IMG/VR virus record: IMGVR_UViG_3300046808_000835
Location: 1-55,838 of that record
DNA from: a virus
Taxonomy: Duplodnaviria; Caudoviricetes
Reading direction: 5' to 3' (one strand)
DNA: 55,838 bases
Within the stretch, counting starts at the first letter, position 1; each line of letters begins with the position of its first letter. A program made the position numbers and the translations under genes. This document shows positions 6,179 through 37,285 of this stretch, in pieces. The notes beneath the pieces were generated by a model. The model did not search any database. It had not been told where the DNA came from and worked only from the letters and a program-made list of their open reading frames with translations.

Positions 6179-6281
6179 TGGTAGAAGGGGTGGGAATCGA
6201 ACCCACATTACTCCGCCTTATCTAGACGGTGCTCTACGAGTTTATAAGGCTCGCCCTTAGGCCAATATTAGCAACCCTTCC
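6179..6281 (-). tRNA. Atypical tRNA-Ile(TAT) with long variable arm
   Basis: GGAAGGG/CCCTTCT-ACCA acceptor, loop CTTATAA, ~30-nt variable region, T-arm GTGGG-TTCGATT-CCCAC; 103 nt. Confidence 0.75.
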
Positions 6282-6282
6282 A

Positions 6283-6441
6283 CTATTGTTTGTTTTGCTC
6301 AGATTCTTGTACTCGTTGCTCTATGCGCCACTTAGCCCACCTAACACGATATTCAAAACTTAGTGGTTGCTGTTCGTGACACACTAAACTACTTTGTGGA
6401 AATGTATTTTCTAGTTCTGCTATTACTTCATCAGCAGTCAT
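6283..6441 (-). CDS. Hypothetical protein
   Basis: MTADEVIAELE...; ATGA overlap with the rubredoxin stop. Confidence 0.55.
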   Translation of the reverse strand: MTADEVIAELENTFPQSSLVCHEQQPLSFEYRVRWAKWRIEQRVQESEQNKQ

Positions 6442-6575
6442 TGTAGTTCTACTGGTTCGTAATCTTCTTTGCCTACTCCACAATCAGGGCACATAAATGT
6501 GTCGTCTAGCTCTGACCAAGGGCCATCAACAGCCTCATCGTGAATGTGTCCACAAATTACGCATGAATAAGTCAT
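6438..6575 (-). CDS. Rubredoxin
   Basis: MTYSCVICGHIHDEAVDGPWSELDDTFMCPDCGVGKEDY; two CxxCG motifs; not in ORF track. Confidence 0.9.
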   Translation of the reverse strand: MTYSCVICGHIHDEAVDGPWSELDDTFMCPDCGVGKEDYEPVELQ

Positions 6576-7024
6576 ACCAAGCTCCTTAATTTTTCCGCGT
6601 ATTTATCAGCGTGATGCTTTTCAACGCGTTTTAGTGCATTAAAACGTTTTTCAGCTAATGTTAACATACTCTTAAACTGTTCGGCATGTACTTTGCTCTC
6701 ACTAGCTTGCTCTAGTGCTTCTTGTTGCGCTTGTGTATCGCCCTCTGCTTTTGCAATAGCTGCAAAATGTGGATACATTTCAGTGTATTCATATGTTTCG
6801 CCAGCAATAGCCAGTTCCAAACACTCCTTTACACTAGGCTTGCCAATTAAGAGTTCTAGATGGCTCCAAGCATGCAGTAGTTCTTGTTTTGCTGTATCAC
6901 GAAAATGTTGAGCAATTTCAGGATAGCCTTGCTCATCACTTAATTTAGCAAAGTAAAGATATTTTGCATGTGCTGAACTTTCTCCAGCAAAAGCACTTTC
7001 TAGGTTTTTACGAGTATGTTTCAT
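6572..7024 (-). CDS. Rubrerythrin (ferritin-like di-iron)
   Basis: NLESAFAGES.A..KY.YFA...QELLHA...AIAGETYEYTEMYP...ES..HA...VE..HA. Confidence 0.92.
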   Translation of the reverse strand: MKHTRKNLESAFAGESSAHAKYLYFAKLSDEQGYPEIAQHFRDTAKQELLHAWSHLELLIGKPSVKECLELAIAGETYEYTEMYPHFAAIAKAEGDTQAQQEALEQASESKVHAEQFKSMLTLAEKRFNALKRVEKHHADKYAEKLRSLV

Positions 7025-7031
7025 ATTTTAT

Positions 7032-7220
7032 TTATGTGTGATCGTGTAAAAAACGAGCTACCAACTCTTTGTGTAGTGTTTCTTTAAACACTTCTCTAGC
7101 CTGCACAAATAGTTGATAACCATGTGAGTTAAAACTTGCTGCTGCACTTGCCATATCATCGGCTAGAGACAATAGTAGTGCTTCTTTTTCAGCAACGTGT
7201 ATTTTGTCTTTGTGTATCAT
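7032..7220 (-). CDS. Hypothetical protein
   Basis: 62-aa ORF tightly packed in the operon. Confidence 0.6.
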   Translation of the reverse strand: MIHKDKIHVAEKEALLLSLADDMASAAASFNSHGYQLFVQAREVFKETLHKELVARFLHDHT

Positions 7221-7229
7221 AGCTACACC

Positions 7230-7619
7230 TTATACCACGTTCCAGTTTGTTCCGCGGAAAACTAAGGTTACACTACCATCACTAGCTGCTAATATAGAGT
7301 AATTGATGGTGTTTTCAATAGTTTCGGCTCCATCAGGAACAATTAATACGTTGCTAGTTTGGCCAGCTTCAGCTTTTATTACTAAGATTCTGCCGTCTGT
7401 GCCAGCCGGAAGATCAATTTGTACATCAACACCAGTACCTACAACTCCAATATAATAATCTGTTGCAGTTACTGAATAAGGACTTGCAGCATTGTTAACT
7501 AAAACAGTACTTACAACGCCCTCGCTAACAGAAATAACGCCATTTGTAACGTCTATTCCCGTGCCTACTTTTACCACACCATATTGTGTGGTTGAACTAA
7601 TTGGAGAATTATATGCCAT
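7230..7619 (-). CDS. Fibre-like protein (fibre shaft repeat plus LP..G..K beta domain)
   Basis: TTQYGVVKVGTGI..TNGVIS; IDLPAGTDGRILVIK...ETIE...SVTLVFRGTNW. Confidence 0.65.
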   Translation of the reverse strand: MAYNSPISSTTQYGVVKVGTGIDVTNGVISVSEGVVSTVLVNNAASPYSVTATDYYIGVVGTGVDVQIDLPAGTDGRILVIKAEAGQTSNVLIVPDGAETIENTINYSILAASDGSVTLVFRGTNWNVV

Positions 7620-7651
7620 TTTATTATTATCCTTATATCGGCATTTTTATA

Positions 7652-7954
7652 TTATGCTATAGTTTTCCAATTGGTTCCGTCGTATGTTAGCAACACGTGA
7701 GAGAACTTATTGTTTAGTATAGCAAATGTAGCACCATCAATTGTTTTACCTGGTGCGGTAATTGTTATTGGATTGCTTTTTGAATTACCAGAAAAATCTT
7801 TTATATAAAAAGATTTCCCACTATTGCCGCTTCCAGCAAATGCTGGCAGCACTATAGAGCTAGCACTTGCAACATTAGAAAATATAATCTGATCGCTAAC
7901 ATTAACGATGTAAGGTGTTGTAGTTACTAGAGTAGTTGTATAGTTAATAGACAT
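7652..7954 (-). CDS. Fibre-type beta-domain protein
   Basis: IVLPA...GKSFYIKD..G....NPITI...GKTIDG...V.L.YDGTNW, a repeat type known from tail fibres. Confidence 0.65.
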   Translation of the reverse strand: MSINYTTTLVTTTPYIVNVSDQIIFSNVASASSIVLPAFAGSGNSGKSFYIKDFSGNSKSNPITITAPGKTIDGATFAILNNKFSHVLLTYDGTNWKTIA

Positions 7955-8506
7955 TTAGCTTATCCTTGTTAATGTAACTTTTGCAGAATAGCCGCTAGGT
8001 CTAACTGGTCCAACAAGAGGAGCCAGTGCAGTTAAACTTGTTGTTGTATCTGCACTACTCCAACACATCTGTATGTTATCTCCAGCCGTCATGTCTAGGG
8101 TATAGTTTCCGCTAATAAATACGGCGGATAAGTTGTTGGTAAGTGGTAGTTCTTGACTACTACCAACTAAGTTTACACCGTTTTTACGTAACCATAAACT
8201 TATAACCGCGGTACCACCAGCAGTTTTGTTTGTGATAATGGTAAATATTTGTGTATAAGTACCAGTATTAGCAACAACAATACTGTTGCCTCCGCTAATA
8301 CTAACACCGTTTGCAGGACCTAGAGTGTCATAAGTAACTATGTTAACAGCATTTGCAACTGGGTTAGTTTGAGTTGTAACACTGGTTGCAAAACCATAAT
8401 TATTTGCAATAGCTGCGCTTATAACACCATTTGTTTCTGTAATACCGCTTCCAACTTTTACTACCCCGTACTTTGTTGTACTTGCTATGTTTTGATTGTA
8501 GCTCAT
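7955..8506 (-). CDS. C1q/BclA-CTD-like jelly-roll protein with N-terminal fibre repeat
   Basis: TTKYGVVKVGSGI; IVVANTGTY...LWLRKNGVNLVGS...LDMTAGDNIQM; ATGA overlap at 8503-8506. Confidence 0.65.
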   Translation of the reverse strand: MSYNQNIASTTKYGVVKVGSGITETNGVISAAIANNYGFATSVTTQTNPVANAVNIVTYDTLGPANGVSISGGNSIVVANTGTYTQIFTIITNKTAGGTAVISLWLRKNGVNLVGSSQELPLTNNLSAVFISGNYTLDMTAGDNIQMCWSSADTTTSLTALAPLVGPVRPSGYSAKVTLTRIS

Positions 8507-9018
8507 ACAACATTCCACTCAATACCGTTATAAACTAATCCAATGCTACCCCAGTCCAAGTCTATTATGTAATTTGGTAATCCATCTATAGAGGAACCTG
8601 TTGTATTTATAGTAATAGGATTTGTATTAGCATCTCCTACTGAATCTTTTACAACAAAAACCTTACCCAAAGTACCGGCTGGAAGTGTAACTGTTGTTGC
8701 GCCATTAAATATAACTCCTAAAAAGTACTCGTCTGCAGTGGCAGTATATGTAGCTTCATCTATTAAAGTAACAGCTACATCAGCCAAAGAACCTGGTGGT
8801 CCTTGTGGTCCTACAGGTCCTTCTGGTCCAACTGGCCCTGGTGGGCCTGCTGGTCCTGCTGGTCCCGGTGGGCCGGGTATTCCTGGTATTCCTGGTGCAT
8901 AGTTAATAAAAAGGTCATTATCTTCAGGAACTACTGGTGGCACTACAGGACATATAACAGGCGGAGGTATTACATACCAATTAAATGGTGGTAATAAGTG
9001 TTGCCGCTGATTCTTCAT
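8503..9018 (-). CDS. Collagen-like protein with C-terminal fibre beta domain
   Basis: About 11 GXY triplets; VTLPAGTLGKVFVVKD...NPITI...IDG...LVYNGIEW. Confidence 0.75.
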   Translation of the reverse strand: MKNQRQHLLPPFNWYVIPPPVICPVVPPVVPEDNDLFINYAPGIPGIPGPPGPAGPAGPPGPVGPEGPVGPQGPPGSLADVAVTLIDEATYTATADEYFLGVIFNGATTVTLPAGTLGKVFVVKDSVGDANTNPITINTTGSSIDGLPNYIIDLDWGSIGLVYNGIEWNVV

Positions 9019-9039
9019 TAGATAGTCCTTATAAAATCG

Positions 9040-9064
9040 CCCCAGTATCTTTTGAATACTGGGG
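9040..9064 (-). terminator. Hairpin/partial terminator after the first operon gene
   Basis: CCCAGTAT-TCAAAAG-ATACTGGG followed by CGATTTT. Confidence 0.5.
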
Positions 9065-9082
9065 CCATCAATTAGTTAGAGA

Positions 9083-9850
9083 TTATCTAATGTTTGTGTT
9101 TGTGTTTGCTGGGTTAGCGGTTAGTGTGCCGCTGCCAACATTGATTGCTTCATTTGTACTACGAATGCTCTGTGATAGACCCCATAGCACATTGTAGAGT
9201 TGCCCCCACTGAGCTTGCTGCTGTTGTTGCTGTTGCATTTGGTTGATGTTATTAGTTGTAGTAACTTCAACACCACGAGTAACTGCACCAGTATCTAACT
9301 TGGCTTGTAGTGCAATAATTGCTGCATTAGCATCAGAGAGTTGACGGTTTAGGGTAGCTTCGTATTGGCTAGTAATTAGAGCACGAGTTTTATCGCCATC
9401 TGTAGTAATATCTTTAGCTAGCTCATAACGGTTTTCCATTATGGAACGCTCAACGCCATTTAGTTGTTGTGCTAAAACCATTGTGCCAGCATTAACAGCT
9501 TCTTTTGTGCCATCAACACGACTAGCTAAAGAGCTTGCTACGTTATTAAGTTGGCTGGTAAGACCAATTGTTTGGTTAGCTTGGCTGGCTTCCATTGCAG
9601 CAGTGCTTACTGCTACCGACTTATCAACAGCACCAATAGCTGCCATTAAGTCCATATTGGCTTGTGTTTGCTCAGGAGGGCTGCGTAAGACAGCTCCGGC
9701 AGCTGCAACGTCGCCGTTGCCGCCAAATAGATTTCCATTGTTGCGAAGTAAGCTGCCTAAGATAAGGCCGCCAATAAGGCCGCCTCCACCGCCAAAAAGC
9801 CCGTCGCCGCCGCTCATCATCATGCCTGCTGGTGTAATACTTTCTGCCAT
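9083..9850 (-). CDS. Gly-rich N-terminus plus long coiled-coil protein
   Basis: GGGGGLIGGLILGSLL hydrophobic segment, DGDKTRALI motif, poly-Q; strong AGGAG RBS. Confidence 0.8.
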   Translation of the reverse strand: MAESITPAGMMMSGGDGLFGGGGGLIGGLILGSLLRNNGNLFGGNGDVAAAGAVLRSPPEQTQANMDLMAAIGAVDKSVAVSTAAMEASQANQTIGLTSQLNNVASSLASRVDGTKEAVNAGTMVLAQQLNGVERSIMENRYELAKDITTDGDKTRALITSQYEATLNRQLSDANAAIIALQAKLDTGAVTRGVEVTTTNNINQMQQQQQQQAQWGQLYNVLWGLSQSIRSTNEAINVGSGTLTANPANTNTNIR

Positions 9851-9927
9851 TTTATTCTCCTGTTGTTATTGTTATTGTGGAGTAGTAAAAAGCAAACAAT
9901 ACCGGCAAGTATTGCTTGCCGACTGCA

Positions 9928-10125
9928 CTAAGTTAGTGCAGGTTTCTGAATAATTAATTCAAACTGATCTAGTGTTAGCAATTCATCAGTTTTACTTAAA
10001 TCTTTTAAGTTTTCTATAATGTAACCTAAGTGTTCTTCTGTTGTTTCAGGCTTTCTAACATGCTCAAAAAGCTTGTGTAACAGTCTAGGACTTAGTTCGA
10101 TTTCATAAATCTTATACTTCGCCAT
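9928..10125 (-). CDS. Hypothetical protein, paralogue of 10112..10369
   Basis: Shared pattern I.L...L..KL.E..R...E.L..I.E....L.....LT. Confidence 0.65.
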   Translation of the reverse strand: MAKYKIYEIELSPRLLHKLFEHVRKPETTEEHLGYIIENLKDLSKTDELLTLDQFELIIQKPALT

Positions 10126-10369
10126 CAGCAAACTCCTTTACAGGTAAGTCTACTGTTACTGTACGAGACTCTGGCACTATCTTTAAGTAGTGTGCCATTG
10201 TTAGTGTATATCCGTGATTGGTTAAACCAATTGCTCTTTCAGTGATCCAATGTAAATCTTCATCACTAAAACTATCTTCACGAGCATACTCTAACAGTTT
10301 CAAGAACAGTGGTACATTTATGTGCAACACGTCATGTTCATTATAGTTATATTCTGGGTACATATGCAT
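10112..10369 (-). CDS. Hypothetical protein (VPLFLKLLEYARED type)
   Basis: 85-aa ORF with GGAG RBS. Confidence 0.7.
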   Translation of the reverse strand: MHMYPEYNYNEHDVLHINVPLFLKLLEYAREDSFSDEDLHWITERAIGLTNHGYTLTMAHYLKIVPESRTVTVDLPVKEFADGEV

Positions 10370-13971: not shown

Positions 13972-14496
13972 ATGTACACCTACTATTCATGTTACAGGAA
14001 AAACGCTAAACAGTCAAACACTGCGAGTGTGGCTGTAAAAACAGCCATAGTAACAGTATTGTTTAGTATTTCCACGCAAGTTTTTGCGCCTGAACCTGTT
14101 CGTGGCACAGTATACCAACTAACACAAAAAGATACACACTGTTTAGTTCGCAACGTGTACTACGAAAGTGCAAATCAACCAATTGAGGGTCAGGCTGCTG
14201 TTCTTCAAACTACACTTAACCGTGCATTTGCTAACCGTGAAAGTATCTGTAAAACAGTATACAAACAATTGGTAAACGGTGTGTGTCAGTTTTCTTGGAC
14301 TTGTCAAACACCAAAATATATACCTCCACTAAAGTATAAACAAACACATGACTTTGTAACAGACTATGTATCTGGCAGATACCCACACTGGCAAGAAAAG
14401 TATAAAGACACAAAGTACTTTCATGCAACATACATCAATCCCGGCTGGAAACGCAAAGTAGTTGACAAAGTTGGACAACACGTTTTTTATGAATAA
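13972..14496 (+). CDS. Cell-wall hydrolase SleB-like (Hydrolase_2)
   Basis: CLVRNVYYES.NQP.EGQ.AV...LNR...ICKTVYK...CQFSW...YFHA.Y..P.W...GQHVFY. Confidence 0.9.
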   Translation: MYTYYSCYRKNAKQSNTASVAVKTAIVTVLFSISTQVFAPEPVRGTVYQLTQKDTHCLVRNVYYESANQPIEGQAAVLQTTLNRAFANRESICKTVYKQLVNGVCQFSWTCQTPKYIPPLKYKQTHDFVTDYVSGRYPHWQEKYKDTKYFHATYINPGWKRKVVDKVGQHVFYE

Positions 14497-31872: not shown

Positions 31873-32367
31873 ATGCTGCCCCAAACCAATCCCGCCGAGG
31901 CACTGCAAATACAGCCAGAACAATTGGAAATAGCCAATTGTTATTTACAATGTGGAAGTGTGGCCGAAACTGCCGACAATCTACAACTGTCACCCGAAAC
32001 CGTAGCAAACACACTCCAGCTGCCACATGTCAGAGCGTACACAGCTCAGCTATTCATGGAAACTGGCTTTGCAAATCGTCACACTATCCGTCGCGCCATG
32101 GACGCTGTCATACGCCAAAAACTGCAAGAACTGCATGAGTCAGAAACTGGATCCAACAAAGACATTGCCGACCTACTGTTACTATCACATAAAATGTCTA
32201 TGGATATTTTAGATCGCGAACTGCAACTGGCCAAACTGCAGCAGCAGGTAACTGAGAGTCAGGTCAAAACACAAACCAACATACAAATTAACGGTGGTTT
32301 AACAGACAACACACAGTATGCTAAACTAATTCAACAGTTACTGGAACGAGATGCTGGAGATAAGTAA
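31873..32367 (+). CDS. terS: Terminase small subunit (T5-like)
   Basis: PE.LEIAN.YL..G...F..TG..NR...I..KL.E..E...GS.KDI.DLL; directly upstream of TerL. Confidence 0.8.
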   Translation: MLPQTNPAEALQIQPEQLEIANCYLQCGSVAETADNLQLSPETVANTLQLPHVRAYTAQLFMETGFANRHTIRRAMDAVIRQKLQELHESETGSNKDIADLLLLSHKMSMDILDRELQLAKLQQQVTESQVKTQTNIQINGGLTDNTQYAKLIQQLLERDAGDK

Positions 32368-35338: not shown

Positions 35339-37285
35339 ATGGTAGACCGCAATCAAATGCTGTATTTAAACAGCACAGTTACCAAAGCCGAGCCCTCTAA
35401 TCCTGATGATGACAGTTTAGTTATTAGTGGTTACGCAAGTACCGTAGATGCAGACCGTCATGGTGATGTGGTAAGTAGTGCTGCTTGGCAGCGTGGTTTG
35501 AATAACTACTTGAAAAATCCTATTATTCTAGCATTTCATAATCATTCAATGCCTATCGGTCGTATGGTAGAGCATAGAATTGATGAGCGTGGTTTGTGGA
35601 TTAAAGCTCGTATTTCTAAAGCCGCTTCCGCAGTTTATGAATTGGTAAAAGACGGCATTTTAAGCGCATTCAGTATCGGATTCAGAGTTGTTGATGCTGA
35701 GTATAATCAATTAACAGAACTATTTGTTGTAAAAGAACTGGAACTGCATGAAATTAGCGTTGTAAGCGTCCCAGCAAATCAAGAAACACTATTTAGTTTA
35801 GCAAAAGCGTTTGACACTCACTCCGAGTACAAACAGTTTAAGTTGCAATTTGCACCCGAAAGCGAATCAGCTAAAGGGCTAGAATCCTCAGTGGAAGCAA
35901 ATAGCATATCAATTAGTAAGGAATGGAATATGACTCCAGAAGAAATGAAACAAGCAATGGTTGATGCTGCTCGCCAAGCCGCCGAGGAAGCTGCTAAGGC
36001 AGTTGTAGCCGAGCAACAGAAAGCCGCCCAAGCCCTGGCTGCCCAACAGCAAGCCGAGCGTGACTTAGAAGCCAAGATCAAAGCTGCCGTTAGCGCAACT
36101 GTTGAGACTGGTGTTAGCGGTGCAGAGAAGCTGCTTGCTGAAGTTGAGAAGCGTTTTGCTGAACAAGCTGAGCAAAGCAAGAGCGCAATCGCTGGTTTAG
36201 AAGCTGCTCTCAAAGAGAAAGCTGCTGAACTCGAAGCAATTCAGAAGAGCAAGATGCAGTTTAGCGACAAGAGCGGTGACACCGTTTCTTATTCCGACAA
36301 AGAGAAAGCTGTTCTGTTAGCTCGCATGAGCAAGAAAAGCATTCTTGAGACCAAAGTTGGTCGTGAGCTTGTACAAAAGTACGGTGCACACGTTCCTTCA
36401 GCCACTTGGGAACTCGAAGTTTCTACTAACCTAGAAAACGAAGTTCGTCAGCGTTTAGTTGTAGCACCTACAATGCGTGCTATCACAATGCAAACCAATG
36501 TAATGACAATTCCTGTTAATCCAGAGTCTGGTGTTGCAACCTGGGTTCAGAATGCTAACTTTGGTGCAGCTGCTAGTGCTGGTAACAATGCTACACACGC
36601 ACTTAAAGAAATCACTCTTAATGCATACAAAGTTGCTACCAATGAGTACGTAGCCTTCGAAGAAGAAGAAGACGCTCTGTTAGCAATTATGCCTGTTATC
36701 CGTGATGGCATGATCCGTCGTGTTGCTCGCGCTGTAGATCGCGCTTTCTTACGCGGTGCCGGTGCTGGTGCTGATCCTGTTAAAGGTATCGGTACATACG
36801 ACGCAGCCAGTGCTGTAAACCTCGATATCGACGGTGCTACACTTGCTGCTGGCAGCTATGCCAAAACCACAGTTGCTACCCTGCGCGATATGCGTAAAGA
36901 TCTAGGCGTATGGGGTCTTGATCCTAGCGAGCTAGTTTACATTGTTTCTACCGATGTATATTACGAGTTGCTCGAAGACACCAACTTCTTAACAGTTGAC
37001 AAAGTTGGTGATCGTGCCACAATCTTAACCGGTCAAATCGGCTCTGTTGCTAATACACCAGTATTAGTAAGCGGCGAGTTTGATGCTAAGGGTGCTGGTG
37101 CCATGGCTGCTGTTTGCTTTGCACCTGCTAACTTCTTGGTTGGCAATCAGCGCGGTCTCCGTGTTGACACCGATGACTTGATCGAGACACAGCGTCGCGT
37201 AATGGTTGCAAGCCTGCGCACTGGTCTTACACAAGTTACCACAAACTACGGTCAGGGCGTAAGCACCTTACGTTACGTAGCTTAA
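35339..37285 (+). CDS. Fused HK97 prohead protease / major capsid protein
   Basis: ISGYAS...DRHGD...ILAFHNH..PIG...FSIGF...EISVVSVPANQ, then coiled-coil delta domain and HK97 fold; in-frame ATG at 35930 with AAGGA RBS. Confidence 0.92.
   Translation: MVDRNQMLYLNSTVTKAEPSNPDDDSLVISGYASTVDADRHGDVVSSAAWQRGLNNYLKNPIILAFHNHSMPIGRMVEHRIDERGLWIKARISKAASAVYELVKDGILSAFSIGFRVVDAEYNQLTELFVVKELELHEISVVSVPANQETLFSLAKAFDTHSEYKQFKLQFAPESESAKGLESSVEANSISISKEWNMTPEEMKQAMVDAARQAAEEAAKAVVAEQQKAAQALAAQQQAERDLEAKIKAAVSATVETGVSGAEKLLAEVEKRFAEQAEQSKSAIAGLEAALKEKAAELEAIQKSKMQFSDKSGDTVSYSDKEKAVLLARMSKKSILETKVGRELVQKYGAHVPSATWELEVSTNLENEVRQRLVVAPTMRAITMQTNVMTIPVNPESGVATWVQNANFGAAASAGNNATHALKEITLNAYKVATNEYVAFEEEEDALLAIMPVIRDGMIRRVARAVDRAFLRGAGAGADPVKGIGTYDAASAVNLDIDGATLAAGSYAKTTVATLRDMRKDLGVWGLDPSELVYIVSTDVYYELLEDTNFLTVDKVGDRATILTGQIGSVANTPVLVSGEFDAKGAGAMAAVCFAPANFLVGNQRGLRVDTDDLIETQRRVMVASLRTGLTQVTTNYGQGVSTLRYVA

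Follow-up and report, generated by a model that had tools for sequence, protein, structure and literature searches.

A five-gene phage cassette in a tRNA region couples a long-helix protein to miniature collagen, C1q-like and gp9/gp10-type proteins: a possible accessory fibre set

The 55.8-kb IMG/VR viral contig IMGVR_UViG_3300046808_000835 (55,838 nucleotides, estimated to be 53% complete; its whole length is called the window below) carries five closely packed open reading frames (ORFs), here named A to E, on the minus strand at 7230–9850. All of them are present where an earlier note, made from the sequence alone, had proposed a five-gene operon. A encodes a protein dominated by one long predicted helix, and B–E encode small proteins assembled from collagen, C1q-like, fibre and beta-domain parts. 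We read the five genes as an accessory set of virion-borne fibres in which A, produced in excess, is the shaft or anchor, and give this reading a probability of roughly 40%. All of the parts are of known kinds; the novelty lies in how they are arranged, in that miniature gp9-type, collagen and C1q proteins are combined with an uncharacterised family of long-helix proteins and a conserved attenuator, within an optional cassette of the tRNA region.

In the mechanism that we favour, a self-contained, moron-like unit would encode trimeric fibres that are added on to the virion. Protein A would be the conserved α-helical shaft or anchor and would be made from its own expression signals, and a conserved hairpin would pass only some transcripts into B–E, so that A would be in large excess. 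B, the sole constant partner of A, would join it through a Q/P-rich N-terminus, extend as a short collagen triple helix and end in a beta domain like those that T4 gp9, gp10 and gp34 and the CBA120 tailspike TSP4 carry beside their attachment sites. C, D and E would serve as interchangeable adhesin modules at distal or branching positions, and their number shifts between close relatives as in host-range cassettes. Trimer formation, the contact between A and B, the location on the virion and the adhesive role are what we infer. This reading is favoured because the domains of B–E are of virion-fibre or baseplate kinds, because export signals are missing, because the genes behave as a single heritable unit with fast turnover of its modules, and because several homologues lie within or at the end of structural modules.

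The co-inheritance of A and B was assessed in 80 related viral loci, some of which are duplicates, and adjacency was counted in the 64 loci whose downstream flank measures 2.5 kb or more. In every one of these, one or more beta-domain genes come directly after A, usually within 60 nt. There is one such gene in 33 loci, two in 10, three in 17 and four in 4, and 59 of the 64 loci have exactly one beta-domain gene that bears collagen. Genes like C, D and E were found by blastp in 25, 38 and 45 of the 80 loci, respectively; for the C-like head this figure was used because the count by hidden Markov model (HMM) is ambiguous, E-type N-termini matching as well. Therefore, the A–B pair is the core of the cassette, to which C, D and E are variably added. 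B–E also diversify rapidly between relatives. Four near-complete relatives contain the beta domain nowhere outside the cassette. Two other genomes, G006 and G007 (96% and 93% complete), which were found independently through a large terminase 68–70% identical to that of the window, have neither A nor the beta domain, in a search whose positive control, three known carriers, matched at about 1e-90. Between tRNA-Ala and rubrerythrin, where the window has no tRNA, G006 has 14 called tRNA genes and small ORFs. The absence from these two genomes, the extra tRNAs at the same spot in G006 and the terminator-like hairpins on both sides of A show the cassette to be an accessory, moron-like insertion in the tRNA region. 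The co-conservation of the operon anticipated by the earlier note is thus borne out for A and a beta-domain gene, which occur together in 64 of 64 loci and are both missing from two of two near-complete relatives, and does not extend to C, D and E.

The second line of evidence is the hairpin between A and B. A candidate attenuator, resembling an intrinsic terminator with a short U-run, spans 9031–9065 on the minus strand; its hairpin (9065–9039) has 11 pairs, six of them G–C, and is followed by GATTTTAT. A strong GC hairpin with a U-run stands after A in 61 of 62 distinct downstream sequences, and the stems differ while the pairing is kept, which places it far beyond chance. Of eight solo A genes in distant loci, seven lack it directly downstream; L096 and L099, both of which bear fibre genes, have it. 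Being kept in fibre-bearing loci and missing after most solo A genes, the hairpin seems to serve to keep the level of A far above that of B–E. The attenuating hairpin and the single abundant major product had both been foreseen, and the conservation of the terminator-like structure agrees with an expression of A well above that of the downstream genes. This also yields a clear, testable prediction of stoichiometry. A comparable layout is found in filamentous phages, in which gene VIII precedes gene III, and in pilus operons, where an abundant subunit is followed by a terminator and then by minor or tip genes. The cassette resembles such operons in its abundant first gene and in a hairpin passing a fraction of the transcripts to minor genes, but A is a 255-residue long-helix protein rather than a pilin or a small coat protein.

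Upstream of A, one or more terminator-like hairpins on the minus strand (9891..9923) close the preceding unit, with a 13-pair stem followed by TTTTTACT. Related loci have a long hairpin at the same place, the stem letters of which vary by eye with the pairing kept. The leader of A (9851..9890, minus strand) is short and A+T-rich, with AGGAG 6 nt before the ATG, and relatives carry CTCC..TATAATTATAA..AAGGAG at this position. No match to the sigma-70 consensus was called within 9851..9890, a leader that has room for a candidate promoter of its own. Within the downstream part, the start of C overlaps the stop of B as ATGA, and D begins directly after the TAA of C. The metatranscriptome run X10 yielded scattered contigs of 180–400 nt over 1–20 kb at low depth, which can neither rank the genes nor show read-through.

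Gene B (8503–9018, minus strand) encodes 171 amino acids (aa), with a Q/P/aromatic-rich N-terminus that contains the motif DNDLFIN, a collagen stretch and a C-terminal beta domain. The collagen stretch (nt 8788–8892; residues 43–77) consists of 11 uninterrupted G-X-Y triplets and matches Pfam PF01391 with an E-value of 3e-6 and 27.4 bits, against a cut-off of 27.2. The beta domain (nt 8506–8769) is common to B, D and E, with blastp E-values of 5e-15 for B–E, 4e-14 for B–D and 4e-6 for D–E. Gene D (7652–7954, minus strand; 100 aa) is the beta domain alone, and gene E (7230–7619, minus strand; 129 aa) joins a C-like fibre N-terminus to it, so the combinations of collagen and beta domain in B, of beta domain alone in D and of fibre part and beta domain in E are as had been described. 

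Several searches place this domain among known phage modules. D matches Pfam T4_gp9_10_N (PF07880) with an E-value of 1.2e-3 and 19.4 bits, below the cut-off of 25, and matches the PHROG families of the gp34 proximal fibre (2.8e-5) and of a baseplate protein (2.9e-5); by tblastn it finds baseplate proteins of Haloarcula tailed viruses at 2e-6. A search for longer proteins with D gave two uninformative matches. The beta-domain profile, A2, built from 66 sequences, matches the T4 long tail fibre proximal subunit gp34 (9f4a, residues 112–192) with an E-value of 4.5e-5 and, more weakly, the N-terminal part of CBA120 TSP4 (7rej/7rfo/7rfv, residues 99–167; E 0.02–0.05). By the domain limits given in PMC8825819, the matched region of TSP4-N is XD1, a module of the gp9/gp10 type whose function its authors describe as not understood. 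On these profile matches the beta domain is probably of the T4 gp9/gp10/gp34 (XD1) type. It was not found in the tail module of the window. 

None of B, C, D and E has a signal peptide, and B has no lipobox. B–E would therefore stay in the cytoplasm, where virions assemble. Of the structures that the earlier note offered as examples of its hypothetical filament, the one on the surface of the infected cell is made unlikely by the same lack of export signals, and was rejected.

Gene C (7955–8506, minus strand; 183 aa) joins a fibre N-terminus (residues 1–33) to a head at about residues 37–183. The N-termini of C and E are identical at 22 of 33 positions (blastp E 9.5e-12). In the AlphaFold2 (AF2) model of C, the mean predicted local distance difference test score (pLDDT) is 85.5 and the remaining approximately 150 residues form a jelly roll. 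Foldseek against the PDB aligns the model with BclA, F-BclA, 4-1BBL, ExsFA/BxpB and the C1q domain of Caprin-2 (E 9e-9 to 1e-6, probability 1.00), with target-normalised template modelling (TM) scores of 0.64–0.76. At the level of sequence, C has no family in Pfam (E up to 1), PHROG or NCBIfam, and its profile against PDB sequences reaches only an E-value of 0.34 (an exosporium protein) and 0.59 (TNFSF9). The predicted structure thus indicates a head of the BclA/C1q/TNF type. Through Pfam, blastp and AF2/Foldseek, the domain calls of the earlier note, namely collagen, the C1q/BclA-like head, the common beta domain and the common fibre N-terminus, were all recovered.

Gene A (9083–9850, minus strand) encodes 255 aa, with a glycine zipper at about residues 17–35, a long helix at 60–231, the motif DG(D/E)KTRALI, a poly-Q stretch and an N/T-rich C-terminal tail. 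The Gly-rich N-terminus, coiled coil, DGDKTRALI, poly-Q and strong ribosome-binding site that had been noticed in it are all there. In the AF2 model, made with an alignment of 60 sequences, A has a short helix at 25–36, a single unbroken helix at 60–231 and a disordered stretch in the last 25 residues, and the pLDDT exceeds 90 over about residues 80–190. Taken as a coiled coil, the 170-residue helix would give a shaft about 25 nm long. The central motif and the C-terminal tail are strongly conserved across the 60 diverse members of the alignment. A complex prediction with three copies of A 170–255 and three of B 1–85 returned a score of 0.00 and, run without controls, weighs neither way.

The family of A comprises 2185 proteins at E ≤1e-3 in one search, the best 120 of which are all unnamed or "hypothetical", and 249 clusters at 50% identity in another. 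There is no model for it in Pfam, PHROG or NCBIfam; a cluster look-up of ten homologues gave only the name "hypothetical protein", and a protein-language-model atlas returned only unnamed viral clusters. The profile of A has chance-level matches only among PDB sequences (E 0.18 or worse), and Pfam has no family for the N-terminal extensions of ten longer members. In a BFVD fold search with A, gp38 of Iodobacter phage PhiPLPE was the sole useful match; the other matches to a single long helix were set aside as meaningless. Annotated as "putative tail-fiber protein", gp38 is the only annotated relative of A that was found. It aligns with A by hhalign with a probability of 99.9 and an E-value of 7e-35 over 223 columns, which include the zipper, LGDIKAAVP, DGEKTRALI and the Q-rich stretch, and, judged by this alignment, is a true homologue. 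The gp38 gene lies between the head and neck genes of PhiPLPE, close to the genes of a GDSL esterase, of another putative fibre and of two virion proteins that the record notes as confirmed by mass spectrometry (MS). The comparative paper PMC3391216 does not name gp38 in the passages searched, and no experimental characterisation of gp38 was found in a search that did not cover the 2009 genome paper. 

Two further positions speak for the virion. In L099, the whole A–E set is flanked by the large terminase gene (E 2e-31) on one side and by tail-fibre/virion genes on the other, and in Acinetobacter phage At2 the A homologue (NNFDKGAK_00065, hypothetical protein; tblastn 1e-5) follows a 1348-aa tail spike, about 900 nt before an endolysin and an Rz-like spanin. 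PhiPLPE gp38 and the At2 homologue differ from A of the window in what comes after them, which is no gp9/gp10-type or collagen gene but a helical protein of 50–95 aa. As PhiPLPE and At2 are cultured and carry members of the A family, the location and role of A are directly testable.

What else could A be, if its distant homologues stand alone? The second position just described raises the possibility that A is an envelope-active protein, in which a glycine zipper inserted into the membrane would be combined with a long coiled coil, and which would act in the control of lysis, in superinfection exclusion or at some other step in the envelope. In this clade it would have been joined to fibre-like genes that may work either together with it or independently. 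We regard this as unlikely, although among the alternatives it deserves the most attention. Distant A genes lie beside lysis genes not only in At2 but also in L085 (in the order endolysin with an E-value of 4.6e-34, a 153-aa transmembrane/coiled-coil protein, a 76-aa ORF, A), in L087/88/90 (a holin-like gene and an endolysin at 2.9e-37, divergent from A) and in L091 (endolysin at 3.1e-39, a transmembrane protein, A), and the A2 model finds no beta-domain gene in these three lineages. Because such solo A genes sit beside lysis genes and without fibre genes, a non-fibre role for A stays in play. The cassette is moreover dispensable, and its high expression and own terminators would fit a moron. 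Finally, the hydrophobic segment of A scores 1.59 in a 19-residue Kyte–Doolittle window, near the usual threshold of 1.6. However, only 14 of the 60 family members reach 1.6 in their best 19-residue window. The flanks of the segment are poorly charged as well, being net acidic on the N-terminal side with about one K/R on the C-terminal side, and in 21 of the 60 members more than 60 residues precede the segment without a signal peptide. A constitutive membrane anchor of a single topology therefore does not suit the family, and the segment may be a zipper that oligomerises or is latently membrane-active. The same genomes also contain other candidates for holin, endolysin and spanin, and tail fibre genes, too, commonly adjoin lysis cassettes, so the neighbourhood is not decisive. 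B–E, for their part, lack export signals and could not reach the periplasm. If A were nevertheless an envelope or lysis factor, it would be a new player in phage lysis cassettes.

Two specific lysis functions were considered for A. A spanin was rejected, given the marginal hydrophobic segment, the lack of a lipoprotein partner (B having no lipobox) and the presence of other spanins, namely a 139-aa protein with an 88-aa lipoprotein-like protein in the relative G003 and the Rz-like protein in At2. As for a holin, A matches no holin family in Pfam, PHROG or NCBIfam; distant A genes do adjoin endolysins, yet other holin candidates are present there.

The solo A genes bear on a further alternative, in which B–E are small virion fibres docked elsewhere, and A is an abundant helper, such as a scaffold or a chaperone for trimer or collagen folding, or simply an unrelated neighbour. 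In L085, L086, L089, At2 and PhiPLPE, the gene after A encodes a small helical protein that ends in a KFARYVQS-like motif and is a likely partner of A. A occurs next to such a protein and without fibre genes in distant phages, in L100 a beta-domain mini-fibre occurs in a tail-fibre cluster without A, and an excess of A over B–E would suit a helper that acts in bulk. On the other hand, the adjacency in 64 of 64 loci and the joint absence argue for one functional unit, and the conserved C-terminal tail and central motif of A in 60 members are more typical of a structural interface. The gene order is also unusual for a helper, as phage fibre chaperone genes are usually downstream of their fibre gene, not ahead of it. 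We judge this alternative improbable, a little more so than a role of A in the envelope. As an observation in its own right, the small helical protein with a conserved L(T/S)KFARYVQS-like end was seen after solo A at L085 6702–6992, L086 6620–6922, L082 6666–6953 and L083 3608–3760.

It is also conceivable that the products never belong to the virion, and are instead free complexes released at lysis, for example adhesive receptor decoys, or an intracellular structure. An accessory cassette outside the late module with A in excess would be compatible with this, and in their fast diversification B–E resemble proteins that are exposed to changing host surfaces. The places of the genes in L099, PhiPLPE and At2 speak for the virion, though, and we know of no precedent for free complexes with these domain types. 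Of all the explanations this seems to us the hardest to believe.

Returning to accessory fibres on the virion, a number of observations weigh against that reading. The cassette lies 22 kb off the structural genes, on the strand that carries the tRNAs, rubrerythrin and rubredoxin. In the complete relative G003, the late module is already supplied with spanins, an endolysin and six fibre-like genes, and the A–B pair is about 6 kb beyond these on the opposite strand. The beta domain matches an XD1-type domain and not the XD2/XD3 docking domains. A glycine-zipper segment is unusual for a fibre, and a fibre with A and B in the equal ratio A3:B3 would need no attenuator. No virion proteome shows A, and the proteins noted as confirmed by MS in the record of PhiPLPE are gp34, gp35 and gp63, with gp38 not among them. 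Solo A genes have no fibre partner, and an endolysin lies within about 1 kb of them in four of seven lineages (L085; L087/88/90; L091; At2). The place outside the late genes, the excess of A and the solo A genes near lysis genes are what keep the other explanations alive. 

A bolder reading is that A founds a new class of phage appendage or envelope device. In such a device, an abundant zipper coiled-coil protein would build up a structure of many copies, or hold it in place, on the capsid, tail or membrane, interchangeable collagen, C1q and gp9-type mini-adhesins would be displayed on it at low copy, and the conserved attenuator would set the ratio. We hold this to be doubtful. If true, the cassette would be a pilus-like operon of a major subunit plus tip adhesins, acting as a moron of T5-like freshwater phages, and the A family at large, with its 249 clusters and frequent neighbourhood to lysis genes, would represent an unrecognised, widespread phage function.

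How does the cassette compare with known systems? The CBA120 proteins TSP4 and TSP2, G7C gp66, and T4 gp9, gp10 and gp34 from which branched receptor-binding complexes with gp10-like domains are known, likewise re-use small trimeric beta domains of this family in adjacent genes, with interchangeable N-termini among the partners and gene numbers that vary between relatives. There are several differences. The match of the cassette is of the XD1 type and not to the XD2/XD3 docking domains, going by the limits in PMC8825819. Its beta domain is C-terminal and sits on proteins of 100–171 aa that have no enzymatic or long fibre body. Furthermore, the cassette has no visible baseplate anchor domain, is outside the tail module and comes after an unrelated coiled-coil protein. 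A branched complex of the CBA120/G7C type was rejected, since only the XD1 region matches and the beta domain is not in the tail module.

The collagen-like stalk of B and the C1q/TNF-like head of C recall BclA of the Bacillus exosporium and F-BclA, which the titles of its entries name as the tip fibrillum of F-ENA. The top Foldseek entries of C are 9h38, 3tyj, 2z5w and 1wck (E 9e-9 to 1e-7). Unlike in BclA, the stalk and the head are on two proteins, C has a phage-fibre N-terminus instead of collagen, the sequence identity is 14–20%, and the context is a phage rather than a spore. Searches of the literature on gp10-like tailspikes and on phage fibres with collagen or C1q listed no such layout. 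The remark of the earlier note that it knew no described system with this layout in T5-like phages agrees with the literature searched, but needs the qualification that A has an annotated relative, gp38, the "putative tail-fiber protein". Modular fibre and adhesin cassettes decide the hosts of phages; the modules here are unusually small, optional and outside the tail genes, and they are tied to a widespread family, that of A, for which no experimental study was found.

The window carries 10 tRNA genes and one tmRNA, and among its structural genes are the small and large terminases, the portal, a protease–capsid fusion, the tail tube and a large distal tail protein; an ORF of 2373 aa is, by its position, a putative tape measure gene. 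The small terminase starts at 31873, 22 kb from the cassette, in agreement with the earlier description of the operon as far from the virion module. The protease–capsid fusion is 39% identical to that of Thalassavirus (Demerecviridae) Vibrio phages, and the tail tube is 31–35% identical to the tail tube proteins of phages that we recognise, and take, as T5-like. The relative G003 has direct terminal repeats. The label "T5-like" thus holds in a distant sense, with identities of 31–39% in the capsid and tail tube, and does not stand as close kinship. From these identities the phage appears to be a distant relative of the T5-like phages and no classified member of Demerecviridae. A megablast of 7000–10200 against cultured phages gave no match.

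The sequencing runs with matches to this phage are mostly labelled as freshwater metagenomes. Contigs of X3, which is freshwater-labelled, match the window over 1.2–3.8 kb with 0–3 differing letters in the listed pieces, and contigs of X5 differ from it by <1% to about 8%, depending on the piece. Our reading is that of a distant T5-like freshwater siphophage, and from the hint given by the tmRNA, through its model matches, we infer a freshwater betaproteobacterium as the host. The tmRNA gene lies at 2331–2710 on the minus strand; it scores 90.8 bits with the betaproteobacterial model and 116 bits with the permuted model, and ARAGORN reads its tag as ANDEVYALAA.

Next to the cassette, two small acidic paralogues of 67 and 85 aa (9928..10369, minus strand) lie just upstream of A and accompany it. 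They share the motif PLLLRL.EY.RE...DEDLH, and no family was found for either. By blastp, their relatives occur in 20 and 28 of the 80 loci, upstream of A; in L007, L015 and L035 they come after the last fibre gene instead. They were not found in G003, G006 and G007, in a search run without a positive control. Just downstream of the cassette, at 6438–7024 on the minus strand, are genes assigned by eye as rubrerythrin-like (150 aa) and rubredoxin-like (45 aa), the former with relatives in 12 of the 80 loci.

Some further variants of A were seen in related loci. P0138 (402 aa) joins an N-terminal coiled coil, long and tape-measure-like by eye, to the C-terminal half of A, and could be either a genuine fusion or a product of chimeric assembly; a related-locus search with P0200 gave no confirmed relative. 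A more distant cassette, in L102, contains a tandem pair of short A-like genes that lack the glycine zipper (4–1179); next to them come the gene of a 56-aa Gly/Tyr-rich peptide, and then those of a collagen protein of 372 aa, a C-like head and E-like fibres. In G003, the A–B pair adjoins a 152-aa ORF that is Dps/ferritin-like by eye and whose place matches that of the rubrerythrin-like gene of the window. Elsewhere in that genome (L103 12825–15494), the endolysin is followed by five consecutive genes with signal-peptide-like starts (190, 283, 166, 127 and 138 aa), which look like a secreted or fimbria-like cluster.

Three minor features of the window remain. At 6182–6281 on the minus strand, Rfam finds a 100-nt tRNA that ARAGORN does not list; in G006 (L184 4414–4514), ARAGORN calls a 101-nt "tRNA-???" with a four-base anticodon (tacc) that adjoins tRNA-Ser. 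These could be intron-bearing or frameshift-suppressor tRNAs. At 13972–14496 on the plus strand, a rightward block of genes opens with a 174-aa SleB-type cell wall hydrolase (Pfam Hydrolase_2, E 5.5e-12) with a hydrophobic N-terminal segment. This is a candidate signal-anchored endolysin, 4 kb from gene A and on the opposite strand. The head maturation protease and the major capsid protein are fused in one ORF of 648 aa at 35339–37285 on the plus strand, with PHROG matches of 8e-44 for the protease and 8e-39 for the major head protein.

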